Of a stretch of DNA of 26,585 bases, positions 1 through 22,009 are shown in pieces (the first letter of the stretch is position 1; every line of letters begins with the position of its first letter). A program made the translations under genes and the position numbers. The stretch lies in the IMG/VR virus record IMGVR_UViG_3300032259_000753, positions 1 to 26,585 of that record. One strand, written 5' to 3'. This DNA is from a virus (lineage: Duplodnaviria > Caudoviricetes). The notes below the pieces were generated by a model. It saw only the letters and a program-made list of their open reading frames with translations, did not search any database and was not told where the DNA came from.

Positions 1-1796
1 ACAACTCTAGCTACCTCTTCCGCCTGATCTTCTCTCACCTCAACAACGAACTCATCGTGAACTACCATAAGCACCGTGGCGTCATAGTTCTCCCGTTCTA
101 GCCGCTCAAACAAAAAAGCAAGTGCCATTTTAGTTACGTCTGCTCCGCTCCCCTGAATGGGGGTGTTCTTTCCGCGGCGTTTAATGCTCGACTTGGCTCT
201 CCTGAACATGGGGTCGTCAGGAGAGGGGAGGGTAAGGAACCTTTTCCTTCCCGAAATAGTAGTAGCGTACCCATTGTACACCGCAGAGCTTGCACAGTTA
301 TCTAGGAACCGCTTGATGTGACTGTAACGCTTGAAGTAATCATCAATAATATCCTGTGCTTCTTCCTCTGTACACTTTAGAGTGTCCGCAAGAGAGTAAG
401 CTCCTCCACCAAAAACGAGGAAAAAGTTCAGAGTCTTAGCTTTTTTACGTTGATTAGGAGTAACCTCTTTGTAAGGTACTTCAAAGATAACAGAGGCCGT
501 GTACTTATGAACATCAAGGGTGTTTCCGTCTTCATCACGCTCTAGATATGCTTTGCGGAAAGTAGGGTCCCCTGACATATCAGCAAGGATTCTAAGCTCT
601 TGCTGACTAAAATCTGCAGTGACCAGTTTATACCCAGGCTTTGCTATAAAACAGCTACGGAAATCAAGAGAGTCATCATCGTCAGGATCAAATCCTGGTA
701 CCTGCTGAAGGTTAGGGTTGGATGAACTCATCCTCCCTGTGTCGGCCATAACCTGATTAAACTGCCCGTGCAGCCTCCCGGTGTTCTTATTTATCTTGGC
801 TAAGAACTTGGAGCCGTAAGAACTAACAACCTTTTGGAAGCCACGCCACTTAATAAGCTGAGGGAATACCGCGTGTTTATTTTTGTAGCGCTTGAGTGTA
901 CCCTCGTCCGTGTCATCTAGTTTAAACCCGAGGCGCTTTAGGTTCTTTAGTAGCTGCGGCTGGCTGCCGATGTTAAACGTAGGCAAACCAAACAAGGTCT
1001 TTTGAGGCATCACACTTTCAAAGTGCTTGTACACCCGAGCCGAAATTTCTCGGTGCTTTACCACAGCCTCTCCTACTAGATCCTTCCACCGCTCCTGGTC
1101 TACAATAACACCCGCAACCTCGGCTTTAGCAAGAGCAGGCAAGGCCCTGTTCTCCATAGCCATTGCTAGGTGAATGTCGTGCTCTCTGAGCAGCTCCATC
1201 TGCTGATAGTAAATGTCGGGAAGAAGAACAACGTCAGCGCCGGAATACGCGTTCTCGCTGTCTGTTATGGGATCTTCAATAGGATCACGGTCAATAAATC
1301 CGGAGCGGGCTTCTTTCTTAAGCTCTATTCCTAAGTACTTGAGGACTACTTCCCGAAGAGAAGGCCTGCGGCGAGCATTGGGGAGCCCAACCGTCAGAAG
1401 ACGCTCTGCAACCTGGCAGCAAAATAAGTTACGTACCTTTATCCCGTAATGCCTGTAAATCCACTTCCAGTCATACTTAGCCTGGAAAAAAACCTTCAGG
1501 ATATCGGGAGACTCCAGTAGTTCCTTCAAAGGAGAAAAGTCTACGTCTCTCCCCGTGGCTTCTTTAGAGTGCCACCCTTCAAAAACAAAGCACTTATCAC
1601 TCGTCCCTACCTGGAGAAGAATAGGCCAGCCGTTGTGGGGGTCGATAGTGCTGTTTTCCGTGTCAACTGCTAGTAGCAGCTCACTGGATAGTTCCTCGGC
1701 TGCCCGCGCGACACCTTCTGTTGTATTTATGATCTCGTAGTCAACTGAGTCGGCAAAGTTAACCTGGGCGGATGTATTGGTAAAAACACTAGACAT
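1..1796 (-). CDS. polA: Family A DNA polymerase (3'-5' exonuclease + polymerase, no 5'-3' exonuclease), C-terminus truncated by window edge
   Basis: Hand translation from ATG at 1796 gives 598 open codons to the window edge (MSSVFTNTSAQ...). Motifs: ExoI LAVDTE, ExoII QAKYD, ExoIII YSGAD, DTGRMSSSNPNLQQVP, motif A ADFSQQELRILA, motif B RKKAKTLNFFLVFG, NTPIQGSGAD, motif C VHDEFVVE. Absent from the ORF track because its stop lies outside the window. Confidence 0.96.
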   Translation of the reverse strand, partial: MSSVFTNTSAQVNFADSVDYEIINTTEGVARAAEELSSELLLAVDTENSTIDPHNGWPILLQVGTSDKCFVFEGWHSKEATGRDVDFSPLKELLESPDILKVFFQAKYDWKWIYRHYGIKVRNLFCCQVAERLLTVGLPNARRRPSLREVVLKYLGIELKKEARSGFIDRDPIEDPITDSENAYSGADVVLLPDIYYQQMELLREHDIHLAMAMENRALPALAKAEVAGVIVDQERWKDLVGEAVVKHREISARVYKHFESVMPQKTLFGLPTFNIGSQPQLLKNLKRLGFKLDDTDEGTLKRYKNKHAVFPQLIKWRGFQKVVSSYGSKFLAKINKNTGRLHGQFNQVMADTGRMSSSNPNLQQVPGFDPDDDDSLDFRSCFIAKPGYKLVTADFSQQELRILADMSGDPTFRKAYLERDEDGNTLDVHKYTASVIFEVPYKEVTPNQRKKAKTLNFFLVFGGGAYSLADTLKCTEEEAQDIIDDYFKRYSHIKRFLDNCASSAVYNGYATTISGRKRFLTLPSPDDPMFRRAKSSIKRRGKNTPIQGSGADVTKMALAFLFERLERENYDATVLMVVHDEFVVEVREDQAEEVARV

Positions 1797-2772
1797 TGCT
1801 TATTCCCCTCATAGCATTGAGCACGAGGGCAGGGTCCGTCCTTAAAGAAGAGGTCACTTCCTCTTTTCTAAACTCTGCTAGGTCTTCCAGGTCCCCTAGT
1901 ATTGAGTGCCTAGGCTTCCACCCGCCTTTAACCAGGGAATTCAATAACTCTACGTCTGCTACGGAGGAAAAAGTTCCCCCCTTCTTCACTTCGTATATCT
2001 CGTGGTTAGCACCAATACATTTAATCATAGCGCCAACTAGTCCCCGCAGGGTTGTTGGCTTACCTGTACCTATGTTAACAGTCCCAGAGAAGCCTGACTT
2101 AATTACCGCTAAAAACGCATCTTTGACATCTTCGGCGTGTATGAAGTCACGTCTGTCCAAAGGACTGACTAGCCCCACGGGGTCTTGTTTTAAGAATGAG
2201 TCCATGAGAAAACTAACGACCCCTGTACGCGGGGAAAACATTACCCGGGGGCCGTACATGTCAAAAATTCTAAGAGCAGTAAATGGAATGCCCAAGGTGT
2301 TACAGTGGTACTCTAAGATAGACTCGGCAGCACGCTCCGCTGTACCGTGGTGTGTAGCGCTGCGTAAAATCTTTCTTGATTCTTTAAGAGGCTTATGGGT
2401 CTGCGGTCCCCCGTACACCTCATGCCCTGAACAGAAATAAACATGTTTAACCTCGGGTCCCAGTATCGAACAAAGAGAGTTGGCGCATCCCAGCGTTAAT
2501 TTTGTGTCCTCATAGAACTTGTAGATGACATCACGAGAAAAGTAGTGGGCCACTGCCAAGATAATAATCTCAGGGTTAAACGCCTTTACTGGGTGCTGTA
2601 CCGCGTTTAAATCAGTAAAATTTGTAGTAAATATGCGAAAGGCTGACGAAGTTCTGTACTTTAAGCTTCCAGAAAAATCGTCACACAAGGCCACATCATG
2701 GCCCGCCTGCTCTAATGCAGGAGCTAAATAGCTGCCAAGTAGCCCCGCACCTCCGACTAGTAAAACACGCAA
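1789..2772 (-). CDS. NAD-dependent epimerase/dehydratase (extended SDR) fold protein, catalytic YxxxK absent
   Basis: N-terminal GGAGLLG Rossmann motif, EVYG, LRIFDMYGPR, RDFIHAEDV, VNIGTG. The YxxxK position reads HGTAE. TTG start preceded by GAGGGG. Confidence 0.88.
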   Translation of the reverse strand: MRVLLVGGAGLLGSYLAPALEQAGHDVALCDDFSGSLKYRTSSAFRIFTTNFTDLNAVQHPVKAFNPEIIILAVAHYFSRDVIYKFYEDTKLTLGCANSLCSILGPEVKHVYFCSGHEVYGGPQTHKPLKESRKILRSATHHGTAERAAESILEYHCNTLGIPFTALRIFDMYGPRVMFSPRTGVVSFLMDSFLKQDPVGLVSPLDRRDFIHAEDVKDAFLAVIKSGFSGTVNIGTGKPTTLRGLVGAMIKCIGANHEIYEVKKGGTFSSVADVELLNSLVKGGWKPRHSILGDLEDLAEFRKEEVTSSLRTDPALVLNAMRGISNV

Positions 2773-2773
2773 G

Positions 2774-3031
2774 CTACACCCCTCTTTTTCTCTTAGTCCT
2801 TATAATTGGAACACGAACCTCACCACAGTCACCGAATACCTGTATGATAAAAGCCTCAATGTCGTCGTTTACCGCCTTAATGCGGCAAACATCAGTTCGT
2901 GGGGCAGTAATAACGAGAGTGCCTGAAGCAGCAGCAGTATGAGAGCCCAGTGTCCTCCCCGTAGCTGCATCAGAGATGGTAATCTTGTCGCCTGGCGCGA
3001 CACCGGTAAACGTAAATTCACAGTTAAGCAT
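2774..3031 (-). CDS. Hypothetical protein, 85 aa, beta-rich with basic C-terminus
   Basis: Fills the gap between neighbours exactly. AGGAGA RBS upstream of ATG. No recognised motif. Confidence 0.7.
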   Translation of the reverse strand: MLNCEFTFTGVAPGDKITISDAATGRTLGSHTAAASGTLVITAPRTDVCRIKAVNDDIEAFIIQVFGDCGEVRVPIIRTKRKRGV

Positions 3032-3042
3032 GCAGTCTCCTA

Positions 3043-3843
3043 TTAGAAGCGAAAAGAGTGGCCGTTGAGTACTTCGTAGTACCGAGCAATATCTCCGCGG
3101 TCGTAAGTCGCAGGATTTTGCTTGACTGCTTCCATGTATACCATTACTTCAGCTGAATCTATGTCGTCGAACTCGGGGCTCTTAGGGTCAACTCCCGAAA
3201 TATCAACACCATTAAATACGGTAGGTGTGAACCCTGCCTTCTGCAGTAAACAGTAAAGTTGGCGAGGGGTATAACAGATTATGTGATGAAGCCACGTATC
3301 GTACGTGTACCCTTTACTTGGAGGGGTCTCTACAATAATTGTTCCTCCAATACGAAGAACCCTGTTACACTCCAAAAAAGCTACAATCGGCATACAAGAG
3401 TGCTCAAACACTTGGTACCCTGCCACAATATCAAATTCTCCAGCGCTAAACGGCAACATATGGATGTCGCACAGAGTAAGGTTTTCTCCCACTACTTCTT
3501 CTGCAAACTTCATATTACGTAAGCCAAGGGTCGTACCTTCAACTCTGCGTGCCCCAAGAGACCGGGCCAACTTTACCTCTCTTCCCGTACCTGTTCCCAG
3601 GATTAAAAGGTCTTTGTCTTTAATCTTGTCTCCCGCAAACCTATTTAACGTTACACCTTCATTCGTTAAACTGTCATCAATATCCTGTCCGTTTTGAACA
3701 TTAATTAAGAAGTACATCTTCTTTCTTAACGATTCCATTTCCTCCGCTGTGTACTCGTAAGTGGCATGGAGGTTAGAGTTACGGTGCTTATCGTAAAACT
3801 CTTTCTTTTGTTTTTCTATTTCTTCAGGAGACGTTGTGTACAT
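3043..3843 (-). CDS. Class I SAM-dependent methyltransferase fold protein
   Basis: LILGTGTG glycine loop, CDIHMLPF...FDIV...VFEH...ECNRVLRIGG pattern typical of Methyltransf_11-like proteins. Confidence 0.85.
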   Translation of the reverse strand: MYTTSPEEIEKQKKEFYDKHRNSNLHATYEYTAEEMESLRKKMYFLINVQNGQDIDDSLTNEGVTLNRFAGDKIKDKDLLILGTGTGREVKLARSLGARRVEGTTLGLRNMKFAEEVVGENLTLCDIHMLPFSAGEFDIVAGYQVFEHSCMPIVAFLECNRVLRIGGTIIVETPPSKGYTYDTWLHHIICYTPRQLYCLLQKAGFTPTVFNGVDISGVDPKSPEFDDIDSAEVMVYMEAVKQNPATYDRGDIARYYEVLNGHSFRF

Positions 3844-3845
3844 TT

Positions 3846-4832
3846 CTATTCCTCAGGATAATGCGAATGAATGTGCTTTTTAAGGTCGTCAATAAATCGT
3901 CCGTGGTGGCCGTTTTTAAGGATGTCCCAATCTATTTTTCCAGTTTTAGTGACTGTTTCCATGTAGTCACTCCACGAATCGCAGTCATAGTCGTTGAACT
4001 TAGTGGTCCTTCCGTGGTGGTTGGCTCCCGCACAGACCGAAGCGCGTTGCCTGTCCCACTTAATAAGCTTTGAGTCTGGGACACCAAATATCTTAGGATA
4101 GTTGGTATACCCTACCTTAATAAACCTACCAGAAGAATCGTGGGTACGTCCTTTTGCATCCTTGTCCATATCATTGGCTAGTCTCGAACCAGAAAGTATA
4201 CACGAAAAGTACCCAAGTTTCCACCCTTTATTAATAAAAGGCATGTCTCCATAAATAGAGTACTCCGAGTAACCCCCGACCTCATACCAGTATGATTTTC
4301 TAAACCCAATGGCCCACCCTCCTCCATGTTTACACAGGAGAGAGTAGTGGCCTGCTTGCGGGTTGGTGCAGGAGATTATACCCGCAGAATCTACGTCGCT
4401 CTTGAGCCCGTTTTCGTTGTACGAGTGGCCTAAATAAACGGTACCCACGTAAGGAGCCGAGTTGAGTAAGTCAGTAGTCCTCCGCATGAAAGGAGCTAGG
4501 ACTTCTACGTCATCATATAGTAAGATAACATTCTTGGAACGCGTTAGAGAAACCGCTGTGTTTGCGTTTACGTGGAGGCCCTTGTTTCTCCCCAAGTTGA
4601 CGGCGACGTGGCTAACCTTGTCCTTTATCTCCGAGATAAAGTCGTAGTTGTCGTACAACAACCCCCCATCGTCACTAACTACTAGTTCAAACGGCATGTC
4701 TGCGTGCTTGTGAATGGAATCTATTAACCGCTTTAGTCTGTCGTGGCGATTAAATGAGACTATTGCAATGGAACAAAAATCCTCATTATGGATACTTGCT
4801 CTTCCCGGGAATGTCCGTAAGAATTCACTCAT
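3846..4832 (-). CDS. Glycosyltransferase family 2 (GT-A)
   Basis: SIAIVSFNR...FELVVSDDG...N.GL...N...ILLYDDVEV, later EVGGYSE...GD. Confidence 0.88.
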   Translation of the reverse strand: MSEFLRTFPGRASIHNEDFCSIAIVSFNRHDRLKRLIDSIHKHADMPFELVVSDDGGLLYDNYDFISEIKDKVSHVAVNLGRNKGLHVNANTAVSLTRSKNVILLYDDVEVLAPFMRRTTDLLNSAPYVGTVYLGHSYNENGLKSDVDSAGIISCTNPQAGHYSLLCKHGGGWAIGFRKSYWYEVGGYSEYSIYGDMPFINKGWKLGYFSCILSGSRLANDMDKDAKGRTHDSSGRFIKVGYTNYPKIFGVPDSKLIKWDRQRASVCAGANHHGRTTKFNDYDCDSWSDYMETVTKTGKIDWDILKNGHHGRFIDDLKKHIHSHYPEE

Positions 4833-5471
4833 TTATTTCCTCGGGGTAAGTGTAAAAAAGCCAACGCCATTAGAATACCTAGTCTGATGCTCCTTAAGTC
4901 CTGGTACTTGGTGACTCACACCCGCTACCTTCCACCCCTCATCCCTAAAAAAACAAGCCCAGGCGTCGCGGTCCTGGCGCACAATATGAGTGACGTCCAA
5001 CTCATCTTCAGGGACAATATACCTACCATCTTTAGCCAGCGGAACAATAACAAATAAAGACTCTGTCATTTCCTTAAACTTAGCCAAGATGGATCCGGCC
5101 ACATCAAGTTCCACGTGCTCAAATACATCTTTGGCAATTATGTGGTCAAAATTGCGGTCAAAGGGAACACACTCCTCTACCGTGCACAACTTGAGGTAGG
5201 GCTTTACATCCTCGTTGCACGAAAGTATCGCATACTCAGAGATATCGCATCCCCAAGCCTTCCGCCCTAAGAGACGGAAGGCTTTAACGTAGTGCCCCTT
5301 AGCACAGCCAAAGTCTAAAACAGAGGAATCTCTCTCTATTCCCAGGTAGTCAATGTAAGACATAACAGCAGGGATAGTTTTATCCGGCAACCAACGGTAG
5401 TTCTCGTAACAAGACTTACCTGTTTGAGGCCCTCTCTCAAAGTAGTCGTAATCAAACTTATTCCCTGGCAT
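4833..5471 (-). CDS. Class I SAM-dependent methyltransferase
   Basis: VLDFGCAKG, AWGCDISEYA, FDHIIAKDVFEH, DVTH motif. Confidence 0.92.
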   Translation of the reverse strand: MPGNKFDYDYFERGPQTGKSCYENYRWLPDKTIPAVMSYIDYLGIERDSSVLDFGCAKGHYVKAFRLLGRKAWGCDISEYAILSCNEDVKPYLKLCTVEECVPFDRNFDHIIAKDVFEHVELDVAGSILAKFKEMTESLFVIVPLAKDGRYIVPEDELDVTHIVRQDRDAWACFFRDEGWKVAGVSHQVPGLKEHQTRYSNGVGFFTLTPRK

Positions 5472-5480
5472 TACTAACGC

Positions 5481-6098
5481 CTATACTTTCTGGTAAAGGT
5501 ATTCTGAGCGGCCGTTAAAATCTAACAGCTCAAAGCCTAGATTCTTCATAAACTTTTCCCACCCTATGGGGGTAAAAGAGTAACCATCCGTGTCTTCGGG
5601 GTTCCCAACAGACTCGGGACGGTTGTCCTCTCTAAAGGTGTTCTCCGAACAAAGGAGATAACCACCGTCCTTAAGGATACCATGGATTCCTTTTACAATC
5701 TCGGTCTTATCGGGAGCATGCCTGTTGTGCTGAAGAACCGAAGCCGTAAAAACAACATCAAACGTTTGCGGTTCGTACGATTCCCCTAATGTACGGGCAT
5801 TTCCCTGTTTCCAAACGTTGCCCGGCTCCAAATCCTCAGCCAACTTTAACATTCTAGAGCTTTGGTCAAACCCTTCGTACGTCATTCCTCGGAACAGTAA
5901 CTGCCAGTAACCAGGACCACATCCTACATCTAAAGCACGCGTGCCTCCGGCCGGTATGATAACAGTAAGTACCTTATTGCGTAACCACCCTCCTAATGAG
6001 GTACTTTCTGTGTCACTAAATTCAAAGAAAGACCTCTCTGCTTCCCTGCACTGGTCCGCATGAACATCCCAAACATTAACATCTCTACCATCAGCCAT
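5481..6098 (-). CDS. Class I SAM-dependent methyltransferase
   Basis: ALDVGCGPG, YEGFDQSSRML, FDVVFTASVLQH, ILKDGG. Confidence 0.92.
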   Translation of the reverse strand: MADGRDVNVWDVHADQCREAERSFFEFSDTESTSLGGWLRNKVLTVIIPAGGTRALDVGCGPGYWQLLFRGMTYEGFDQSSRMLKLAEDLEPGNVWKQGNARTLGESYEPQTFDVVFTASVLQHNRHAPDKTEIVKGIHGILKDGGYLLCSENTFREDNRPESVGNPEDTDGYSFTPIGWEKFMKNLGFELLDFNGRSEYLYQKV

Positions 6099-6124
6099 TA
6101 AATGCTCCTTAAATACATTGTTCC

Positions 6125-7648
6125 CTAGGGAAAGTTAACATGGCTAATACTCGGGGACCCCTCTGGAGCACCAGCAGGATTAGCAACAAGGCTTTTTACT
6201 TCGTTATTGTTGTTCATGAAAAGGCAGGCAGAGCACATCTCACGTGGGTCAAAGAAGGGCTGCAGCGGTTCCGCAAACAAGCGAGACACTTCGGTGTTGG
6301 GAACAGTCCCCCACTTTTCGTGGTCAAACTTACGTTCAGATGCCAACACAGAGTTATCTGTTGCCTCTTCGGCGAGAACCGTAATAGAGTCACATGCGTA
6401 ACAGTATGACTTTCCGTTTTCTTCGTGGCCAGTTGTATCCCAAAACACATTGTATGCTTGAAGGAAGCACTGACCCGCATCAAACAAGGAGTTAGCTTCC
6501 TCCGATGTACCGTGGTACTTCAGTTGATGAAAAAACTTACCCAGGGGCTTCCCCTCTGAGTCAATGTAACCTAAACGGTACATCCTCTCTGATAAGTCCT
6601 GGTGAGCACGTAACTGAGCGCCGCGAGTGAGGTTACAGTCGGTCAGCATGCGGCAGTAGATGAACCCGTTATCCTCCATAGACTGGTGTATTCTATGAAG
6701 AATATCGTCATCTGTCCAGGGACCATACACATACGAGTACCCTACCGTAGTAGAAGGGTTATCTATTAACGTATCAGGAAGCCGCTGGTTGTTAAACTTA
6801 CCGTCTATATAGTGGGGAGAGGCATCCTCCGGGGTAACTGATATCCTAACCCACTTAAACTTGTTGTATGTTTCGTCGGGGATGTTCTTAGGGAACCCGT
6901 TGGTAATAAGACCAAGGTCAATGTCTAGTTTAGAGACCCACTCAACAAATTCAGTGAATGGGGGCCACAAGTTAGGTTGGCCGCCGCCCGAAAGAATAAG
7001 ACCTCTGAGCCTGATATCAGTCCCTGCTTCTCTAATGTAATTATTATTGTGCTCGGGAAAGTTCGCCCTGTTATACTCTGCCTGGTCTACGTACAGGGCA
7101 TTAACAAAGTCCTTAGCCTCCTGCAAGCTAATAGAGTCCTTTTTATTCCTAGAGATGGTGGAACAAAAATTGCACCGAGAAGAACAAACTTGGTGTAAGG
7201 TAAGGGTAGCCCTGATGATGCTTCCAAAGCCCGTCTCTTTTAGCTTGTTAAATATAGGCCAGTGGTGTCTAAGTTTAGCCCCCGTGGAGGTAAAAGATGT
7301 CTCTGCTCTAGTTAACTGGTGCCTTACGTCCGATGGAGATACTTTAGCGACCGACCTCTCATTTAGTTTACCAGCTGCTAGGTCCTTCTCATAGATATCA
7401 AAGGAGGCCGTACTGCCCCTGACTTCAAAGTTGGCCATAATAAAGCGAGCCACCTCTTCCGTTATCTCATCGCTCTTAATGATGCTTCCGTCCTCGCGGA
7501 GGAGGTTATAACGTGTGTGTTCAGCAAAATGCCCGCCACCTACTTGGCTGCGGAGCTGCAGGCTATTCTTCTGCAACCGGAAGCTAAAGCGGTACGACAA
7601 CTCGTACCCCCCTGCCTCTGCCTTAATAGCTACTTTATTGGCGGCCAC
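6125..7648 (-). CDS. Radical SAM enzyme with Cys-rich C-terminal (SPASM/twitch-like) region
   Basis: CSSRCNFC (CxxxCxxC), LSGGGQP, GLITNG, WVRISV; C-terminal CFLQ...CYAC...CSAC. GTG start. Confidence 0.9.
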   Translation of the reverse strand: MAANKVAIKAEAGGYELSYRFSFRLQKNSLQLRSQVGGGHFAEHTRYNLLREDGSIIKSDEITEEVARFIMANFEVRGSTASFDIYEKDLAAGKLNERSVAKVSPSDVRHQLTRAETSFTSTGAKLRHHWPIFNKLKETGFGSIIRATLTLHQVCSSRCNFCSTISRNKKDSISLQEAKDFVNALYVDQAEYNRANFPEHNNNYIREAGTDIRLRGLILSGGGQPNLWPPFTEFVEWVSKLDIDLGLITNGFPKNIPDETYNKFKWVRISVTPEDASPHYIDGKFNNQRLPDTLIDNPSTTVGYSYVYGPWTDDDILHRIHQSMEDNGFIYCRMLTDCNLTRGAQLRAHQDLSERMYRLGYIDSEGKPLGKFFHQLKYHGTSEEANSLFDAGQCFLQAYNVFWDTTGHEENGKSYCYACDSITVLAEEATDNSVLASERKFDHEKWGTVPNTEVSRLFAEPLQPFFDPREMCSACLFMNNNNEVKSLVANPAGAPEGSPSISHVNFP

Positions 7649-7651
7649 TGT

Positions 7652-8575: not shown

Positions 8576-8598
8576 ACTCGCCTCTTTCTTAAAACCTT

Positions 8599-9207
8599 CT
8601 ATATGACATCAAACCACAGTGCCAATTCTAGGTCGTCCCTTATTACTTTGTATCTACTAGCCAGAGCAAAAAGCTCATCTCCTAAATAAAAGAGGCACCT
8701 ATGAGACGGCTCATCCGACCAGGCCAGTTGAAACGGAACTACAAAAATAACACCCTTTGTAGCTGCTTTTAAGCACTCTGGTAGAACACAGTTTAACACC
8801 TCGTCCCGAGTAAAATGCTCCACGGTGTGCGATGAGTAAATATAGTCGTAGGTACCTTTAATCCCGTTCCTAATGTCATCACAATAAAAATCAATACCGG
8901 AGGAGAGCCCCGTTCCCGCCTCCTGTACATAGTCAAGTACGGAAACTTTATCGACGTTTGGGAACCCTAGGAAGGTGTTCGCCCAGTAACTGTGCCCTGA
9001 ACCAAACAACAAAACCGAAGAAGCGGGCTCAAAAAAACTAAACACCTCTTCTTCGGTTCTAATGCTAGTAGCCTGAGGGTTACCGGCGGGGACAGTAGTT
9101 ATATACCGAGACGGATAAACGTCAATGGGGTCAGGGGTAGCACGAGGAAGCTCAGCTATGCAAGCGGGAGAACTTACTTCTCCTACATCTAACCAAGGAG
9201 AGGCCAT
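8599..9207 (-). CDS. Class I SAM-dependent methyltransferase fold protein
   Basis: VLLFGSGH, VSVLDY, YDYIYSSHTVEH, VIFVVP...PSH. Start overlaps the upstream stop (TAATG). Confidence 0.8.
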   Translation of the reverse strand: MASPWLDVGEVSSPACIAELPRATPDPIDVYPSRYITTVPAGNPQATSIRTEEEVFSFFEPASSVLLFGSGHSYWANTFLGFPNVDKVSVLDYVQEAGTGLSSGIDFYCDDIRNGIKGTYDYIYSSHTVEHFTRDEVLNCVLPECLKAATKGVIFVVPFQLAWSDEPSHRCLFYLGDELFALASRYKVIRDDLELALWFDVI

Positions 9208-10058
9208 TAGTTAGTCACCACCACTTTTATTTTTTGGTACCCCAAGGATACTAGACAAGCAGCGCGGTGGCTGCCGGAGAGTTCTAGCTGGCCTCCCGGA
9301 ACCTTGTGTACTCGTACGTAATCGTGAAGCAGGGGTCCGCTGGCGTATCCATACTTCTTCATTACCTCGTACATTGAACATAAATACCTGCGGTCCAGCT
9401 CGTCGGGGGCCGGGCGATTCCGAGGGGAGTCTTTCAACCACCCACCGTCTGGTCTCTGTATCTCTTCTGGTCGGATATTATCTTTCATCTGTAAGAAGAG
9501 GTCCCAGTAACTATCAGGGTCTTCACTAGGGTACTTACCAGCCTTGTACTCCTCTAACCAGGGAATGTATTTATCTTTCGCCACGTCCCTTATCTTAGTG
9601 GAAGGACTTTCCAGGTCAATTTCTTCGTGGTAGTGGGCACTGTAGCACTTGAGGCTCTCAGTGAACAGCTGCGCTAGCCTGTAGAAGTCTCTCTTAGTCA
9701 GGTGAATACGGCAGTTTCGATAGTGAACATGGATTGTATCCCCTCCTCCATCTTTATCCGCCCCTCCTTGAGTGAACTCAACAGCGGCCCGTTCATGGTG
9801 CAGTCTAGTTCCTAATAAGGTAGTGCTGCTGAGGTCAATATTTTGCTCCACAGGCTCGGGCTGGCCTAACTCATCGTACTTCTTCCGTGCCGCAATCCAG
9901 TGGTCTGATAGTTTGAGGAAGTCCTCTTTGTCGTACACCATACGAAAATCTTCGGTGTGGTCGTGGATACACTCCCGCAGTTCTAGGTGACTCTCGTGGT
10001 TATAGTAGAGTGTCTGGTCTACCTGACGCTCCGCTAATATTTTAAGATTGATTCCCAT
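9207..10058 (-). CDS. Protein with duplicated His-motif N-terminal region and C-terminal ParB/sulfiredoxin-like domain
   Basis: C-terminal MKKYGY...VRV...LSGSHRAACLVSLGYQKIKV matches the ParB/Srx (D)GxHR pattern. N-terminal IHDH..FR and IHVH..CR repeat. Confidence 0.65.
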   Translation of the reverse strand: MGINLKILAERQVDQTLYYNHESHLELRECIHDHTEDFRMVYDKEDFLKLSDHWIAARKKYDELGQPEPVEQNIDLSSTTLLGTRLHHERAAVEFTQGGADKDGGGDTIHVHYRNCRIHLTKRDFYRLAQLFTESLKCYSAHYHEEIDLESPSTKIRDVAKDKYIPWLEEYKAGKYPSEDPDSYWDLFLQMKDNIRPEEIQRPDGGWLKDSPRNRPAPDELDRRYLCSMYEVMKKYGYASGPLLHDYVRVHKVPGGQLELSGSHRAACLVSLGYQKIKVVVTN

Positions 10059-10093
10059 AGAGAAGTCCTTTTTGACTCGTAATTATACCTATA

Positions 10094-10122
10094 ATAATAG
10101 GCCATAAACGTCGATTTGTAAA
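10094..10122 (-). promoter_or_regulatory. Sigma70-like promoter TTTACA-N17-TATTAT
   Basis: In the 89-bp intergenic gap the minus strand reads TTTACA AATCGACGTTTATGGCC TATTAT, then AAGGA RBS and ATG at 10058. Same hexamers and spacing as at 16596-16624. Confidence 0.75.
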
Positions 10123-10147
10123 GCCTGGTACCTCAGCAATAGCCAGT

Positions 10148-11071
10148 TTAAATCTTAGAAAAAATACTTCCAATGGTATCAAGCTGTTGATCAGAAACAC
10201 CAGAGTGGGCCGGGAGACATATTGTTCGCTCTGCCAAATTCTTAGCTCCGGGTTGGTCCATTAATACCGGGAGGCGCTCTACCTTAATTCCTCGCTTGAG
10301 TAATGCTTGCGTCACCTGGTAAGCAAAAGAGGAAGAGGGCAAGAACACTGGGAAAAAAGAATAGGCAGCAAGGGAATCCCAATTGGTCGGGAAGAATCGA
10401 GGAAGTAAGTCCTCGTAGAAAGATGTTATTTCTCGCCGCGATCTCACTTCTTCTGTTAATCCTTCTAGCTCTGCCAAAGCTGCGGCACAACTATACCTAT
10501 TGACAGAGAAGTACCCCGTATTGGTTAGATTTTTGGTCTCTTTCCTAACAGCAGCTGGGCAGTCAAAAATAACAGCCCCTAAAGAACCTACTGGTAAGGG
10601 GCTTCCCTCCTCAAATGCTGTGCAAAAGGCATCTCCCACCGAGGCAATTCCTGGAGTGCAGAAAGAGCTAAACCCCTCTATAATAAGAGTCTTATCTCTA
10701 CTATAACAAAAGTCCCCCAACTCCGTAAGATTCGGAACAACGCCCATAGGACAGGAGGCAATTACTGTGTCGTAATCGTCCGGCCTTACCTGTTCTAAGT
10801 GAGGAATGTCCATCACTCCCTGAGAGTTTACGTCCAGAGCAAGGGTGCGAACCCCCTCAAGAGCATTAAGCGCTTTAATTTCCGGCCGAGCAATCGCAGA
10901 CACGACAATGCTCTTTGAACCTAAAGCAAGGCAAGCAGTAACCAGAGACTCTCTCCCAGAGGACGTCAGAAATAACTTGCTTTCGCTAGGCACCTTAAGG
11001 TGCCCGGAGAGGGCCTCAACCAAAGAGGCTCTAACTCCCCCCTTACTTAGATACTTACCAATAGAGAGCAT
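10148..11071 (-). CDS. DegT/DnrJ/EryC1/StrS sugar-aminotransferase fold protein, degenerate active site
   Basis: LTSSGRESL, LALDV, LIIE, GAV, RREITSFY, AERTICLPAH follow the DegT pattern. PLP-binding Asp and Schiff-base Lys not found at the expected positions. Confidence 0.82.
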   Translation of the reverse strand: MLSIGKYLSKGGVRASLVEALSGHLKVPSESKLFLTSSGRESLVTACLALGSKSIVVSAIARPEIKALNALEGVRTLALDVNSQGVMDIPHLEQVRPDDYDTVIASCPMGVVPNLTELGDFCYSRDKTLIIEGFSSFCTPGIASVGDAFCTAFEEGSPLPVGSLGAVIFDCPAAVRKETKNLTNTGYFSVNRYSCAAALAELEGLTEEVRSRREITSFYEDLLPRFFPTNWDSLAAYSFFPVFLPSSSFAYQVTQALLKRGIKVERLPVLMDQPGAKNLAERTICLPAHSGVSDQQLDTIGSIFSKI

Positions 11072-11096
11072 TTATGACGCCTTCCGGGGACAGTAA

Positions 11097-12068
11097 TTAC
11101 GAGGACGCCTTAGCGTCTTCCTGAACCGCCAGTTGCCTGAGGTGCTCCTGCTTATACCAGGAGAAACACCGCTCAATTCCGTCGCGGAAAGAAACCTTAG
11201 CGTCCCACCCCAGCGCCTTAAGCTTAGAACCATCCATCCACTGAAAGGGAATCTCGGGAAAATCGCGGTCGATAATGTCGTACCCGCTAGAGCCAGCAGC
11301 TTCAGAAATTAGAGCGACCGTCTCCTCAATTGTGTGGAACTTATTGATTCCAATGTTATAAATGTGACCAGGTTTTCCGCTAGTTACCATCAAGTTATAG
11401 GCGTCACATACATCATCGATGTAAATAAACTCCCGCCTAAAATTACGCACTCCCGAGTATATCTCTGGCTTCTCCCCGCGTAAGATTCTCAAGATAGAGT
11501 TAGGAATCAAACGAGAGGTGTTCATGTCCCCTGGCCCATAAATATTAGAACATCGCACAACATTGACATTCATGTCGTACGTCTTGGCGTAAGACTGAGC
11601 TATCATATCCGTGCATGCTTTTGAGGTAGAGTAGGGGTCTTCAGGAACCAACTTCATGTCCTCGGTGTAGGGAAGCTGTGCTTGCTCGCCGTAAGACTTG
11701 TACGACGAAGCCACAACTACTTTGGCCGTTGGGCGAGTACGGCGGACGGCATCCAGTACGTTCACTGTCCCCATTACATTAGTCATATAGTTAGATGCAG
11801 GGTCCTTCACCCCAATCCTAACAATGGCGTTTGCTGCCAAGTGGAATACTACATCCGCTTCGTAGTTAGAGACCGCATGGTCAACTAGCTTGGGGTCTGT
11901 AATAGTTCCCTCCACAATAGAACACTTACTTAGTACATCGGGCCGGGTCTTGTGGTTCTTGTCTCGTATGATACCAATAACATGGTTACCTGCAGCGAGC
12001 TGACTGAGCGCCAGGTTGGAGCCTACAAAACCATTAATACCGGTTATTAGAACATTCTTTCTTGCCAT
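11097..12068 (-). CDS. Nucleotide-sugar dehydratase/epimerase, CDP-glucose 4,6-dehydratase-like extended SDR
   Basis: TGINGFVG, VFHLAA, TNVMGTVNVLDA, ASSYKSYG, PYSTSKAC (YxxxK intact), RCSNIYGPGD...SRLIP, REFIYIDD. Confidence 0.92.
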   Translation of the reverse strand: MARKNVLITGINGFVGSNLALSQLAAGNHVIGIIRDKNHKTRPDVLSKCSIVEGTITDPKLVDHAVSNYEADVVFHLAANAIVRIGVKDPASNYMTNVMGTVNVLDAVRRTRPTAKVVVASSYKSYGEQAQLPYTEDMKLVPEDPYSTSKACTDMIAQSYAKTYDMNVNVVRCSNIYGPGDMNTSRLIPNSILRILRGEKPEIYSGVRNFRREFIYIDDVCDAYNLMVTSGKPGHIYNIGINKFHTIEETVALISEAAGSSGYDIIDRDFPEIPFQWMDGSKLKALGWDAKVSFRDGIERCFSWYKQEHLRQLAVQEDAKASS

Positions 12069-12084
12069 TGGAGTCTCCTACTTT

Positions 12085-12885
12085 CTATGTAAGCTCGCTG
12101 TACCACTCTTCGATGCCGTCAGGGTGCTTCCCTAAGTACTTATAATACTTGGCATCTACCTCCGTCGGAAAACCGTCAAGAGAGAAGTGGTCATGTGTCC
12201 GAGCAACAAAGTCATACTCTGGTAGCTCGTCAAATGGAATTAAGGTGTCTGCTGGGTGGAAAAACCCATCGGCATTCCTTACCCTTTTACTAATCTTGGC
12301 AGGGTCTTTGGCTACCCGGCTGTAGTGGTAAATTTTGTAGGGCAGGTCTACACACCTACCAGGAACAACTGCCGCAGAAAACATCCCCGACTTGTCTGTA
12401 GCTTCAGCGAGGAACGAGTACGCGCCTGCCTTAAAGATACGAACCAAGTTAGCATTCCAGTCCTTACGAACAGTCTCCAGGTCCTTCCAGAAATAAACCC
12501 TCTCCAAAGAGAACCCAATAACATCCGTATCCTGGTTGCGTTCCATGAAAGCCTTGAGCATGTCAAAGTCATCGTTGAGGAGGAACTCATCCGCCTGCAG
12601 AGCAACAACCCAGTCAGCGCCAGAAGCTTTGGCCTCGTCCGAGAGGGCCTCTATTTGCATGGCTATCTCTGTACCGCCCTGAATGTTACTCATATCCCAG
12701 GGAGTGTCAAAAATCCTAACGTTAGGGAGACCTAGAGCGTTTATAGTTTTCAAGTCTTCCGGGAATCCGGGGTCTAAACCAACAATGACCTCGTCACACA
12801 GGCCAGCCATGTTTGATATCACCCTATCAAAAGGATAGTCTAGTCCTGTGCCGTCTCTGAGAATTAGTGTTCCTGCTATCTTCAT
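12085..12885 (-). CDS. Glycosyltransferase family 2-like (GT-A)
   Basis: MKIAG...LDYPF...LCDEVIV...DWVVALQADE...VRIFK...IYHYS pattern. Confidence 0.82.
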   Translation of the reverse strand: MKIAGTLILRDGTGLDYPFDRVISNMAGLCDEVIVGLDPGFPEDLKTINALGLPNVRIFDTPWDMSNIQGGTEIAMQIEALSDEAKASGADWVVALQADEFLLNDDFDMLKAFMERNQDTDVIGFSLERVYFWKDLETVRKDWNANLVRIFKAGAYSFLAEATDKSGMFSAAVVPGRCVDLPYKIYHYSRVAKDPAKISKRVRNADGFFHPADTLIPFDELPEYDFVARTHDHFSLDGFPTEVDAKYYKYLGKHPDGIEEWYSELT

Positions 12886-13457
12886 AGTAATATGTGCCCT
12901 TTAAGAGAGTACCCCTTGGTTGCTACAAACAGCCCTGTCGGGGTAGGTATTTCCTCCCACTTGTATCCCTCGCCCTTGAGGTAAAGGACCAGTTTTTCAT
13001 GCTTTATAGAGTTAGGGTTGTGGATATCATCAATCAAAATGAAGTGGTTGTCGCTCAAGGAGCGGGCGGTGGCTAGATACTCATTAAACATTTGGTCGGG
13101 GCTTTCCCCTGCGTCTAACCACAGAACATCTATGCTATTAGGACCAACACTAGAGAAAGGACTCCACCTGCTGGTTAATTCCGTAACACTATCCCCCCAA
13201 ACAAAAGTTACCTGTTGGTTCGTCAGCCCTAAGGGCTCCAACAGTCTTTGAGCAAAATCCAAGTGGTCTTTGTCGATGTCATAAGTGTATAGGTAGCCGT
13301 CATGGGGCTTACAAATAAACTCCGCAATGTTATTCGTAGTAGTGTGTACCTCATTGCCAGGAGGACATTGAAAAACACAGCCTGTCTCCACGCACACAGG
13401 ATAGCGTGGCAGGTAGGTAGCTATTGCTTTACAAACTTCTCGTACTGTGGAAATCAT
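12882..13457 (-). CDS. Class I SAM-dependent methyltransferase (Methyltransf_24-like, probable O-methyltransferase)
   Basis: VETGC, LYTYDID, GDSVTEL, IDVLWLDA, ILIDD. Confidence 0.85.
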   Translation of the reverse strand: MISTVREVCKAIATYLPRYPVCVETGCVFQCPPGNEVHTTTNNIAEFICKPHDGYLYTYDIDKDHLDFAQRLLEPLGLTNQQVTFVWGDSVTELTSRWSPFSSVGPNSIDVLWLDAGESPDQMFNEYLATARSLSDNHFILIDDIHNPNSIKHEKLVLYLKGEGYKWEEIPTPTGLFVATKGYSLKGHILL

Positions 13458-14155
13458 TACTTATTATCCTTATCGATAACAGGGGGCTCCGTATGCTCAA
13501 CACCCTCCCCTACGTCGGCTGCGTGTAGCCGCTTGTACAAAGATGCGCGCTTTTTTAGGGAAGCGTCATCCTTATGAACATTTTGAAAATGATGAATAGT
13601 AGGCCCGCCCGCAGCCAGCTCCGTACGCACACAGCCTACGACAGTCTCATGAATGCGGCGGCGGTACCTAATCTTTTTACGATTGTGGTGATTGCGGAAT
13701 AACCGCACCTGCCAGTCAGGGTAAGATTCAACATCTACCTGCTTAGTACGCCACTTGTCTTCCCACCGTTTACGAGGGAGCGCCCACGAGTCTATAATTA
13801 CGTTACCTTCGTCATCTAATTCCATGTCGTCCCCAGCAACTCCGAGGGGCTGGTCAATCAAAACTGCCAGCTTTGGCCACTCAGCAGAGTCAAGCCTTTC
13901 ATCCGCGTCAATCATCAGCACCCAGGCGTGGTTAGCGAGGTGCGCAGTCACGGTGCGGATGTTACCGAAGTCTGTGAACCCTACCTCGTACACGCGCTCC
14001 GTGTACTTCTTCGCTATCTCCACTGTCTTGTCCGTAGACCCGGTATCTACTATTATTACCTCTGATACGACAGGAAGAACACTCTCGATGCAGTCGCGGA
14101 GGTTGTCCTCTTCGTTTTTAACGAAGATGCATAATGAAATTGGAAGCTTTTCCAT
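13457..14155 (-). CDS. Glycosyltransferase family 2 (GT-A)
   Basis: ISLCIFVKNEE, VDTGSTDKTVEIA, WVLMIDADE, YPDWQVRLFRN, IHE. Confidence 0.95.
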   Translation of the reverse strand: MEKLPISLCIFVKNEEDNLRDCIESVLPVVSEVIIVDTGSTDKTVEIAKKYTERVYEVGFTDFGNIRTVTAHLANHAWVLMIDADERLDSAEWPKLAVLIDQPLGVAGDDMELDDEGNVIIDSWALPRKRWEDKWRTKQVDVESYPDWQVRLFRNHHNRKKIRYRRRIHETVVGCVRTELAAGGPTIHHFQNVHKDDASLKKRASLYKRLHAADVGEGVEHTEPPVIDKDNK

Positions 14156-15291
14156 TACAGCTCCTCAAGACGAAGTAACATTTGTTTTCCAACGGAATCC
14201 CAGCTAAATTCTGATTTTATGCGGGCCTGGAGGGCAACGCCCCGCTCCGCGGCCTCGTCTCTATTATGGTAAACATGTCTCATTTTGTCAGCTGCTTCTG
14301 GTAAACAGGGGCGAGCCCACTGCTGGTTTCCCCAGTACCAGGCGTTAAAACTTCCCATCCCTGCAACGTAATCCCACATAAAGGGAACAAGGTAACTGTT
14401 GTCTTCAGTCAGGTACTCCATCTGGCCACCCTGACCCGTCATAATCACGGGCTTGCCTGCTAGCCCCGCCTCTAACGAAGTCAGGCCAAACCCCTCCCCG
14501 TGCGGAAGAGTGACATAAGCATCCCCTCTCATATGGAAGGCTTTCATCTGCTCCGACGACAGACTATCGGTGATTAAATTAATCTTCGGGTACGAAGGTA
14601 ACTGCATGTCAGCCTTAATTCGCTTAATCATTTCCTTTATCTGCCGCATGTCTTCGGCGGGAGGGAGACCGCGGCCAACGTACGCCTTAAGAATTAAGCG
14701 AACATCTTCCCCGTTTTGGAACGCATTGAAGTAAGCACGTAGAAGACCGTCTGGGTTCTTACGGTAATTCCACTGCAGGATAGAGTAGAAAACAAAGGTC
14801 TCATCGCTTAATCCAGGGATAGAAAACAGAGTAGGGTCGGCTCCCAGATAAGTGTCCGGCCCTATTCCATGTGGAATCTTGTGGATAGGAACAGTAACTC
14901 CAGACTCTTTGAATGCCTTCACATTCCAATCACAAGGAACCCAAACCTCACTCATCTTGTTACAACAGTCGGCCCACAACGGGTGAAGTTTAGAGGTCTC
15001 CCACACAGTATAACTAATAACGTGTTTGTCGTGGTATTTACTAGCGTAACTGGGGGCGAGGTCGGGGGTTAAATGTACTACTACTATATCAAACTCTATG
15101 TCTTTGCCCTCTAAACTGGCAAAGATTGCGCGCTCATCGGGAGTACCTATCGGCGGAGGGTCGGGCTCAAAGCGCCGAGCTTCAATCGTCAACGGTACCC
15201 CCAGGCGGTGAAGCGCCAGGATATAATTTCTAGAGGCCTCGCCGTACCCGGAGTGGTCCCTAAACGGAGCAATATACTTAACCCCCTTCAT
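14155..15291 (-). CDS. Glycosyltransferase family 4 (GT-B)
   Basis: SGYG, YTVWET, IPHG, RKNPDGLL, HGEGFGLTSLEAGLAGKPVI (Ex7E). Confidence 0.93.
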   Translation of the reverse strand: MKGVKYIAPFRDHSGYGEASRNYILALHRLGVPLTIEARRFEPDPPPIGTPDERAIFASLEGKDIEFDIVVVHLTPDLAPSYASKYHDKHVISYTVWETSKLHPLWADCCNKMSEVWVPCDWNVKAFKESGVTVPIHKIPHGIGPDTYLGADPTLFSIPGLSDETFVFYSILQWNYRKNPDGLLRAYFNAFQNGEDVRLILKAYVGRGLPPAEDMRQIKEMIKRIKADMQLPSYPKINLITDSLSSEQMKAFHMRGDAYVTLPHGEGFGLTSLEAGLAGKPVIMTGQGGQMEYLTEDNSYLVPFMWDYVAGMGSFNAWYWGNQQWARPCLPEAADKMRHVYHNRDEAAERGVALQARIKSEFSWDSVGKQMLLRLEEL

Positions 15292-15292
15292 C

Positions 15293-16564
15293 TTATAGCT
15301 CCTCTGCTGAGATAACGGCCGAACGCTGGGCAGCTACATTGCCCTTTACTTTCTCCATTACGGCATTCGTAATTAACTTGTCCCACATAGGAACAATGTG
15401 CTTACTCCACACAAGGCTAGACGTTACCCACTTATATGCTGTTTCGGCGCGAGTCTTGGCTTCCTCGGGATTATCATAGACATGAACCATGGTCTCAGCC
15501 ATGTCGAGAATATCTGTAAGTGGGCGAACAACCTCGTTGTCATTAGGAAGAACGATGTGGTCGTTGGGAGTATCACCTGATTTCACAAGCCACCCCCTCT
15601 CCTCTCCGATAATTTCAGTGAGGACCGTATTGCTAGGGAAGATGATAGGTGTCTTACACGCCATAGCTTCAACAGTAGAAAGACCCCAGCCCTCTCCCAA
15701 CGTAGTAGACACAACAACATCAGATGCGTTGTAAATACGGTTGACTACATCAATGGGAAACCCTTGGTTGGGCTCGAATCCGTTGCCGGGCAGGAGAACA
15801 TCTTCTCCCAAAGTGAGACCAGTGGCTTTGATTACCTCAGGTAGATTCCATCCCTGGTCATTAGCGGCCATGTGTAGGTACAACACCGAGTTGGGGCGGA
15901 GCTTCTTAAACTCCTTGAAAGCTAGGATACAACGGGGGATGTCTTTGCGCTGCTGATTACGATTAATGTTTGTTACGATATACTTAGAGGCGTGCTTGCC
16001 AAAGTACTCCTTGCGAAATTTCTCTGTCTGCGTCTCTACCATCGGAAAGAAATCATCCGTATTCGCACCATGAGGAATTACCTGAAGCTTATTAGCGATT
16101 GAAGGGCAAGCCAAGATAGATTCCTTCTTACCATACTCCGTGTAAGCAACAGGAACATCAAGCATGTTCATACAGTCCACCCACTTCTTCTTCGGGACAC
16201 CGTCGATGGGATAATACCCCAAAGCAAGGAAGTTCTTCAGCTGGCGCAGCTTGGGGAGGCCTTGCGTCAGAAGGGATTCAAGGATGAACGAATCCTGAAA
16301 CAGAAATAGAACATCATAGTCGAAGTCCTTCGCCATCATGTCAAAGCACTTCTGCCTCCCGTAAGGGTCGCGTCCTCCAACACCTACCGGCCAAATAGGG
16401 AAGGGGTAAGGGTGAGGGTCCCCCCAGTAGTTAACACCTAAAACGGCAATGTCGTACTTCCCTGTTTTATGTAGTCCAGTAAGGATATTCCTACTTACTG
16501 TTCCGAACCCAGTGCTGACTGTGGGCGCGTCGCCATAAAACAAGATCTTAATTTTACTAGACAT
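15293..16564 (-). CDS. Glycosyltransferase family 4 (GT-B)
   Basis: TGFGTV, IPHG, NRNQQRKD, YNASDV...GEGWGLSTVEAMAC (Ex7E). Confidence 0.94.
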   Translation of the reverse strand: MSSKIKILFYGDAPTVSTGFGTVSRNILTGLHKTGKYDIAVLGVNYWGDPHPYPFPIWPVGVGGRDPYGRQKCFDMMAKDFDYDVLFLFQDSFILESLLTQGLPKLRQLKNFLALGYYPIDGVPKKKWVDCMNMLDVPVAYTEYGKKESILACPSIANKLQVIPHGANTDDFFPMVETQTEKFRKEYFGKHASKYIVTNINRNQQRKDIPRCILAFKEFKKLRPNSVLYLHMAANDQGWNLPEVIKATGLTLGEDVLLPGNGFEPNQGFPIDVVNRIYNASDVVVSTTLGEGWGLSTVEAMACKTPIIFPSNTVLTEIIGEERGWLVKSGDTPNDHIVLPNDNEVVRPLTDILDMAETMVHVYDNPEEAKTRAETAYKWVTSSLVWSKHIVPMWDKLITNAVMEKVKGNVAAQRSAVISAEEL

Positions 16565-16595
16565 CTAAATCTCCTTACTTGGTAGTACTGTAATC

Positions 16596-16624: not shown

Positions 16625-16638
16625 CTCGTTTAAGAGTC

Positions 16639-17784: not shown

Positions 17785-17786
17785 TT

Positions 17787-19026: not shown

Positions 19027-19027
19027 C

Positions 19028-19201: not shown

Positions 19202-19203
19202 TG

Positions 19204-19521: not shown

Positions 19522-19522
19522 A

Positions 19523-19864: not shown

Positions 19865-19878
19865 ATCTTTCTCCGTAT

Positions 19879-22008: not shown

Positions 22009-22009
22009 G

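Follow-up and report, generated by a model that had tools for sequence, protein, structure and literature searches.

Organization of the Cassette

The DNA analyzed here, called the window, covers positions 1 to 26,585 of the virus record IMGVR_UViG_3300032259_000753, a 26.6 kb fragment classed as virus. It contains a cassette of 17 open reading frames (ORFs), with genes for glycosyltransferases (GTs), methyltransferases and nucleotide-sugar enzymes, that is a candidate system for glycosylation of the phage's own particles. The cassette lies on the minus strand, as do both of its flanks, between the gene of a family A DNA polymerase, PolA (3..1796, cut by the contig end with its 3' end open), and that of a PD-(D/E)XK exonuclease (16639-17784). 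The latter and the RuvC gene (together at 16639-18308) belong to the upstream flank, a conserved replication block at 16639..26505 that encodes the clamp, RecA, DnaB, DnaG, the single-stranded DNA-binding protein (SSB), DnaJ, RuvC and the exonuclease, in the same order as in related loci. The initial annotation gave the coordinates, strand and flanking genes correctly. Its count of 19 genes is corrected here to 17, which is also the total of its own itemized list; as the intergenic gaps measure only -4 to 89 bp, there is no space for two further genes.

The GC content is 47.6% in the cassette vs. 47.7% in the replication block. Pieces of the window are present in three sediment-metagenome runs, and contigs of run X1, the possible source run, cover both cassette junctions (1-7327 and 7308-20579), so a chimeric join is unlikely. 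At 14.8 kb, the cassette falls in the middle of the size range of its lineage (5-33 kb).

All the enzymes appear to be soluble. A 19-residue hydropathy scan revealed no evident membrane segment among the 17 cassette proteins: the highest value is 1.86, for a DegT-fold protein, and the other 16 stay at or below 1.46, while two ORFs outside the cassette reach 2.3-2.5. Family searches of the window gave no match to Wzx, Wzy, an ABC transporter or a priming transferase. Both results agree with the initial annotation, which had seen neither membrane segments nor export machinery. Between DnaB and DnaG (20919-22008), two ORFs of 143 and 237 aa with hydrophobic N-termini and no family match were observed; the nearest relatives (L085, L087, L088 and L011) have them too.

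Enzymes Encoded by the Cassette

The cassette opens with two GT-B glycosyltransferases of the GT4 type, here called the core: GT4a (423 aa, 15293..16564; PF00534, phrog_2170) and GT4b (378 aa, 14155..15291; PF00534), with Pfam E values of 1.5e-11 and 8.2e-9 for the two genes. For both, the chlorovirus protein B736L ranks first among solved structures, by sequence profile and by fold. Four GT-A enzymes of the GT2 type follow at intervals. GT2a (13457..14155; PF00535, E 2.3e-14) is semi-conserved, with a homologue in 13 of the 42 related loci that reach 8 kb downstream. GT2c (7652..8575; PF00535, E 2.5e-7) has an 80% identical homologue in the relative L087, and GT2d (3846..4832) matches PF00535 with E 2e-8. 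Thus, among the six GTs proposed at first, both GT4 and three of the four GT2 enzymes stand above the Pfam cut-off; GT2b (12085..12885) is weak (PF13704, E 0.0046), its family representative matching PF00535 with E 4e-4.

Four of the five methyltransferases originally listed are also supported by Pfam: the Methyltransf_24-type MT1 (12882..13457; PF13578, E 3e-7; homologues in 5/42 loci) and the class I S-adenosylmethionine (SAM) methyltransferases MT3 (5481..6098; PF08241, E 1.1e-13), MT4 (4833..5471; PF13489, E 5.4e-9) and MT5 (3043..3843; PF08241, E 4.9e-12). The fifth, MT2 (8599..9207), is a putative methyltransferase at the level of motifs: it has no match to a methyltransferase family up to E 3, and its homologue matches Methyltransf_11 with E 0.09.

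The two nucleotide-sugar enzymes of the short-chain dehydrogenase/reductase (SDR) type are confirmed as folds, and one of them lacks its catalytic residues. SDR1 (11097..12068; PF16363, E 3e-57) resembles nucleoside diphosphate (NDP)-sugar 4,6-dehydratases, its best solved matches being deoxythymidine diphosphate-glucose 4,6-dehydratases. An odd Tyr at position 123 is Asp in the X1 assembly, as in the relatives, and the idea of a dead enzyme was dropped. SDR2 (1789..2772) has an epimerase fold (PF01370, E 8.9e-29), in which motif alignment finds neither the Tyr nor the Lys of YxxxK; no variant is listed in the X1 contig. The DegT fold (10148..11071) is a sub-threshold match (PF01041, E 0.0011), and the lysine that binds pyridoxal phosphate, present in all 12 related DegT proteins covering the site, is missing from the window protein, which judging by its residues is likely a pseudo-enzyme or a decayed gene. 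Both reading frames are intact, and the DegT-fold protein and SDR2 may be pseudo-enzymes or scaffolds.

The radical SAM enzyme (507 aa, 6125..7648) belongs to an uncharacterized family. Its score lies just below the Pfam cut-off (PF04055, E 1.2e-6; 29.2 vs. 29.5 bits), and the cysteines C155, C159 and C162 are invariant across 28 homologues. The family counts 414 homologues, some of them about 60% identical and carrying bacterial names; none of 182 genomes and no plasmid was matched, a result that carries no weight on a bacterial context. In other viral contigs, its neighbors are genes for MT4-like, SDR, GT8, GT17, pyruvyltransferase and UDP-glucose dehydrogenase proteins. In L203-L207, which belong to a different group of phages (with a gp32-like SSB), the radical SAM homologue adjoins an MT4-like gene, and both enter glycan clusters jointly; the two form a putative, uncharacterized sugar-tailoring pair. 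Scans for loci by the radical SAM protein alone or by the exonuclease alone gave nothing useful.

Two ORFs remain. An 85-aa ORF (2774..3031) has no family match. For the 283-aa protein at 9207..10058, the ParB/Srx label given earlier, which may apply to the C-terminus, stays unconfirmed: there is no match in Pfam, PHROG or NCBIfam, the Atlas structure search gives a TM score of at most 0.40 (by query), and no homologue occurs in the 42 related loci.

A Fixed Core and a Variable Tail in a Jumbo Phage Lineage

GT4a has 1,526 homologues, and a scan of their alignment gave 122 viral stretches and 63 metagenome loci (one of these, L093, is the window itself). Of the viral stretches, 80 were kept for comparison of the loci. 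All were chosen through GT4a. Several are near-duplicates, so the counts are not independent. An exonuclease or RuvC gene is found within 5 kb upstream of GT4a in 80/80 loci, which also have two or more of the DnaB, DnaG and RecA genes, and GT4b follows downstream in all 50 loci having 3.5 kb of sequence there. The other 15 genes of the cassette behave differently: for each, between none and 13 of the 42 longer loci (those reaching 8 kb downstream) hold a homologue. PolA was matched in 23 of 43 records, always (23/23) on the same strand and 5-33 kb downstream of GT4a, as calculated by hand. When records were selected by capsid instead, one of eight has DnaB and also the GT pair, and the other seven are without the whole region. 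The comparison of synteny proposed with the initial annotation thus recovers the same replication flank and GT4 pair in related loci. The position inside the replication operon is inherited synteny of the lineage and gives little information on the target.

In conservation, GT4b equals or exceeds most replication proteins (median 43%, vs. 37% for DnaB and DnaG, 33% for the exonuclease and 44% for RecA). Because it is fixed as well, a conserved, phage-encoded acceptor would fit. In four loci (L014, L015, L037 and L045), GT4b is interrupted and about 730 aa long, and in L037, the one scanned, intein and LAGLIDADG domains were detected. Inteins are usually located in essential genes; hence, their insertion fits a core role of GT4b.

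The phage origin of the window, claimed from the start, is borne out by the virus record and by phage structural genes in the relatives. The long relatives measure 196-298 kb, and one of 296 kb with terminal repeats (G001) encodes a terminase, a portal and a major head protein, as identified by PHROGs; capsid and terminase genes were among the targets of the wider search proposed with the initial annotation. The window likely derives from a similarly large (jumbo) tailed phage. The capsid protein of the lineage is encoded in 326 viral stretches and has no match among 50,697 GenBank phage records. Only two weak matches to GT4a occur among 185,579 prokaryotic genomes; together with the lack of transporter or priming hits and of membrane proteins in the cassette, no feature of a cellular O-antigen or capsule locus was encountered.

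Further genes of the lineage were observed in G001. A second cluster with GT2, sulfotransferase and methyltransferase genes lies at 153-158 kb (L158:1172-6450), about 27 kb from the main cassette. At 20.3-21.6 kb (L151:1284-2624), a Volactin/MreB-like actin homologue is encoded (PF25216, E 1e-65), with a 44% identical homologue in G003 near 111.7 kb. A cluster of phiEco32-like COOH-NH2 ligase, amidotransferase and GNAT genes at 129.9-138.2 kb (L156:15855 to L157:5221) has homologues in G003 and G011, and more ligase and amidotransferase genes are present at 73-78 kb; this suggests peptide or glutamylation chemistry.

The content of the variable tail was surveyed by clustering 780 proteins and scanning 130 representatives, followed by 83 of 116 further unmatched ORFs (the rest being mostly duplicates). 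The GTs belong to GT2, 4, 8, 9, 17 and 25, with GT32-like, GT47-like and GT-D enzymes in addition. They are accompanied by tailoring genes (sulfotransferases with an adenosine phosphosulfate kinase, hexapeptide and GNAT acetyltransferases, a pyruvyltransferase, and TylF and FkbM methyltransferases) and by genes of sugar pathways: Gfo/DegT pairs, UDP-GlcNAc 2-epimerase, UDP-glucose dehydrogenase, and the rhamnose, heptose and amino-sugar pathways. Such a gene content is that of surface-oligosaccharide chemistry. It is reminiscent of the clade-specific glycogene clusters of Megavirinae (PMC9614988) and of polymorphic clusters in jumbo cyanophages (PMC7824862).

Relatives of the Core Glycosyltransferases

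The AlphaFold models of the two core GTs (predicted local distance difference test, pLDDT, of 88 and 96) were compared by Foldseek, and the top 50 ranks were listed. After B736L, the nearest folds are small-molecule GT4 enzymes, namely MshA, BshA, TreT and sucrose-phosphate synthase; both core GTs are also above the cut-off for the Pfam family GT4-conflict. The DNA glucosyltransferases AGT and BGT of T4 are absent from the PDB profile matches and from the listed Foldseek ranks of the two core enzymes, the four GT2 enzymes not having been set against JGT-type enzymes.

In several other phages, homologues of the core lie among virion genes. In the Arthrobacter phage DanielleIgnace, the GT4b homologue is located between the major capsid and tail chaperone genes. 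In S-CBS4, a GT4a homologue stands between the portal and the head protease, alongside another GT and a methyltransferase, and in TJE1, it is found five small genes ahead of the terminase and has an epimerase and a methyltransferase nearby. GT4b also matches 127 Streptomyces phage records and 32 Sulfolobales virus records, rudiviruses of archaea included. Rudivirus hosts are not known to have lipopolysaccharide (LPS).

The GT4b profile recruits 9,768 cluster representatives at E 1e-30. When the 24 top long matches were scanned, 12 contained TPR repeats, seven GT2 domains, four methyltransferase domains and one a radical SAM domain, and no DNA-binding or base-modifying domain was listed among them. 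The named members of these clusters are bacterial (KSB1, Brocadiales and Anaerolineae). Giant soluble bacterial polyproteins of up to about 5,000 aa (P0361-P0402) carry up to six GT4b-like stretches besides GT2, methyltransferase and TPR domains. Fusions of TPR and GT domains are typical of cytoplasmic protein glycosylation; in its domain content, the window cassette resembles a split version of these bacterial polyproteins.

The Probable Acceptor of the Glycan

The best explanation of these data, to which we give a probability of roughly 55%, is that the cassette glycosylates the phage's own virion proteins with a strain-specific, methylated sugar chain. Nucleotide sugars would be supplied by SDR1 and by host pathways. 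The GT4a/GT4b pair would prime and extend the glycan on a conserved virion acceptor in the cytoplasm, for which the capsid, decoration, tail or fiber protein is a candidate. The variable GT2 enzymes would then lengthen the chain, and the methyltransferases and the radical SAM enzyme would decorate or cap it, while the DegT-like protein and SDR2 probably have no catalytic part. The product would be a serotype-like coat, speculatively affecting particle stability, adsorption and the evasion of proteases or grazers. The initial annotation had deduced soluble enzymes with a cytoplasmic acceptor, which is retained here; it had set DNA and virion protein as the two options, and of these, DNA is now the less likely.

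A broader version is more tentative. An uncultured, widespread jumbo phage lineage would carry a serotype locus like those of bacteria, but serving its own particles. Its fixed GT4 pair, from a virus-associated enzyme family that also occurs in chloroviruses, rudiviruses and actinophages, would prime virion proteins, and a swappable block of 5-33 kb would supply rare sugars bearing sulfate, methyl, acyl or pyruvyl groups.

A cultured analogue is the Flavobacterium phage immuto_2-6A, in which the order exonuclease-GT4-GT4-GT2-DegT-methyltransferase-acetyltransferase-SDR-GT2 is that of the lineage. By profile, its GT4a-like protein scores 60 bits, GT4b 129, GT2a 65, DegT 232, MT1 23, the acetyltransferase 64, SDR 153 and GT2 28. 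It has no match to the lineage capsid and represents a different lineage. Nucleoside analysis of its virion DNA yielded peaks for dA, dC, dT and formyl-preQ1 (fdPreQ1), the last in place of dG (10.1101/2023.04.13.536721). The modified base is explained by a separate set of deazaguanine genes. The accessible text of the same report mentions no glycan on this DNA, although low-level species could escape ultraviolet (UV) detection (10.1101/2023.04.13.536721). Nor does that text give a function for the cassette-like gene cluster. Virion-type genes also occur within cassettes of the lineage itself: a LamG/DUF2341 gene in G019, homologous to a gene in the large-protein block of G003, and a DUF2341 gene in G014. 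Ser/Thr-rich stretches and the terminal Ser of the capsid were considered as acceptor sites and dropped, being common or conserved for other reasons. The conserved DRS or DRSL at the capsid C-terminus in most of 77 sequences is no evidence of such a site, since the capsid is conserved throughout.

Several points weigh against virion proteins as the target. The cassette sits among replication genes and not among virion genes. Homologues of the core also occur near the primase in S-EIVl and next to the ribonucleotide reductase in StarPlatinum. B736L is uncharacterized in its activity, and its acceptor is possibly not the capsid protein, according to the accessible text of PMC9614988. The GTs of immuto_2-6A are just 24-25% identical to those of the window. 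No mycobacteriophage match was obtained for the window GTs by tblastn (five GTs at E 1e-3, GT4a at E 1e-5); hence, there is no sequence link to the enzymes of Che8, Corndog and Myrna. Moreover, the window genome is a 26.6 kb fragment whose closest relatives (L085-L090) are outside the whole-genome searches, and the GT9, GT25, WbqC, LpxD-like and heptose-pathway genes of some relatives are LPS-flavored.

These last genes bear on modification of the host surface, an option outside the initial annotation that ranks second, albeit as an unlikely one. The enzymes would remodel a host glycan (LPS/O-antigen, S-layer, pilin or flagellin) from the cytoplasmic side through a host carrier and flippase, thereby blocking superinfection or changing the receptor. 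Polymorphic GT clusters of jumbo phages are read in this way by Iyer et al. in the accessible part of their survey (PMC7824862). The bacterial TPR-GT relatives could equally mean that host proteins are the acceptors. However, no membrane, priming or export gene was found with the cassette, and the GT4 pair is a constant of the lineage and not a sporadic trait. Homologues of the core in viruses that infect Actinobacteria, archaea and algae, hosts with differing envelopes, and inside virion-gene blocks argue against it as well.

Hypermodification of the phage DNA with a complex glycan, against restriction or CRISPR, is more doubtful still. Besides the location in a replication operon and the incompleteness of the window genome, the strongest hint for it comes from the relatives, many of which have a gene for thymidylate synthase placed between GT4a and GT4b. 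This slot holds a divergent ThyA in 11 loci, ThyX of two families in eight and six loci, and ThyA with DHFR in two. ThyA was found in 6/22 records and ThyX in 9/23, and none has both. The Asn typical of enzymes acting on deoxyuridine monophosphate (dUMP) is kept in the eight displayed of 11 rows of the divergent ThyA; the Asn/Asp rule for ThyA-like enzymes does not, by itself, exclude a dUMP hydroxymethylase. Because ThyA and ThyX are swapped without overlap and the Asn is kept, the divergent ThyA looks like an ordinary supplier of deoxythymidine monophosphate, and its role as a hydroxymethylase, given that it is interchangeable with ThyX and ThyA+DHFR, was rejected.

An enzyme providing a base handle was not found by Pfam or PHROG in the window, as noted initially for this 26.6 kb fragment. 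The wider search proposed at that time also remained blank for the near-complete relatives. Pfam scans (E 1e-4) extended to nearly all of the ORFs selected from G001 (194 of 202), of those in G003 that lack a G001 homologue (96 of 98) and of those selected from G010, G011 and G023 (121 of 125). They revealed no such enzyme, although divergent ones (e.g., 5mYOX) could escape. Searches for TET/JBP (PF12851) and 2-oxoglutarate-dependent dioxygenase (PF13640) domains gave no match in five long records and those for QueD (PF01242) none in 23 records, in one of which a C5-methyltransferase (PF00145) was matched. G001 encodes a canonical ThyA/DHFR, a deoxycytidylate deaminase, two uracil-DNA glycosylases and two N6/N4 methyltransferases. 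Mom-like domains, present in 20 loci, could also be taken to favor DNA. Their genes shift position between loci, as mobile endonucleases do, and one G003 gene outside the cassette joins a Mom domain to CapR repeats; the Mom-like genes are probably mobile endonucleases and were rejected as DNA modifiers.

Some GT-B enzymes do act on DNA and look similar to GTs for small molecules, as the accessible text of Pyle et al. describes (10.1101/2023.12.21.572611). In the same text, GT contigs without a neighboring 5mYOX or ThyS are held less likely to act on DNA (10.1101/2023.12.21.572611). Against DNA stand also the absence of T4 AGT/BGT from the listed structural matches and the lack of a reported glycan in the immuto_2-6A DNA. 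The strong depletion of GATC (19 in the window vs. 69 expected, and none in G023 or L087) is a weak point, which counts little because the modified control, immuto_2-6A, shows a similar mean depletion of palindromes. As this phage is fully G-modified, mean palindrome avoidance does not discriminate and was discarded as a test.

In the least probable reading, the product of the cassette would be a small, soluble molecule carrying sugar, or its target would be a non-structural protein of the phage or the host (for anti-defense or regulation), and part of the variable tail would be decaying cargo. This reading could draw on the MshA-type fold neighbors, the GT4-conflict match and the lost catalytic residues of the DegT-like protein and SDR2, but these neighbors are generic for GT4, and the range of chain-building GT families with capping enzymes better fits an oligosaccharide coat.

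Significance

Large phages often carry 'LPS-like' clusters of unclear target, and for one widespread lineage, the present analysis narrows the target down. It also names a conserved two-enzyme core, homologues of which are available in cultured phages (immuto_2-6A, DanielleIgnace and Streptomyces BE-type phages). Should the virion prove to be the target, glycan coats of a complex and variable kind would be common in environmental phages, with a bearing on adsorption, on persistence and on the annotation of so-called auxiliary carbohydrate genes. The cassettes would be a source of soluble glycosyltransferases and sugar-tailoring enzymes, and B736L, a solved structure without known function, would gain a testable family. 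If the serotype-locus version holds, glycosylation of virions would be a strategy that viruses share across domains, and the 'LPS' label on many large-phage clusters would be wrong.

Comparison with Known Systems

Phage GT clusters and virion glycosylation are already known. No description of the cassette slot of this lineage was found in the literature, in which subscription journals were thinly covered. The moraphages were considered as the lineage of the window and rejected, as they are placed with PolB and with T4/Lak references in the accessible text of PMC12619734.

Proven virion-glycosylation enzymes are described for the mycobacteriophages Che8, Corndog and Myrna (PMC12363180, PMC12619734, both as far as accessible). 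Like these, the window encodes soluble GTs without export machinery, and a virion target is proposed for its lineage. On the contrary, its six GTs have no detectable homology to the mycobacteriophage enzymes, and the cassette is far larger, includes its own sugar-synthesis enzymes and varies across the lineage.

The jumbo phage clusters labeled 'LPS / capsular polysaccharide modification', e.g., that of P-SSM2, share several GT families, one to four epimerases and their polymorphism with the cassette, in the accessible description (PMC7824862). In contrast to P-SSM2-type clusters as presented there, the GT4 pair is fixed in position in 50/50 loci and not sporadic, and the evidence leans toward a phage acceptor. 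Also missing from the window are PfkB kinases and nucleotidyltransferases, both encoded by some relatives.

With immuto_2-6A, the order after the PD-(D/E)XK nuclease and eight cassette families by profile are common; the lineage, the low identity and the separate deazaguanine pathway that modifies the immuto_2-6A DNA set the two apart. Glycosyl-hypermodification of phage DNA, as with the hydroxymethylcytosine of T-even phages, the 5mYOX-C5MT-GT systems (10.1101/2023.12.21.572611) and the arabinosylation of 5-hydroxycytosine (PMC13326640), is similar in that a GT lies near replication genes and, as far as these accessible accounts go, sometimes beside a thymidylate synthase. It differs by the handle enzyme, missing here from near-complete relatives, by the synthase, here interchangeable with ThyX, and by the GTs, here not AGT/BGT-like.

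In enzyme content, the cassette also resembles the autonomous clusters of chloroviruses and Megavirinae, which combine soluble GTs, sugar methyltransferases and NDP-sugar enzymes and are clade-specific, in the accessible text of PMC9614988 and PMC10117803. Both core GT4 enzymes are closest to B736L, the A546L orthologue. Unlike these viruses, the lineage is one of tailed bacteriophages, with terminase, portal, major head protein and bacterial-type RecA, DnaB, DnaG and clamp. On the features compared, the cassette works like an autonomous viral glycosylation cluster and stands outside the mycobacteriophage and T-even families.

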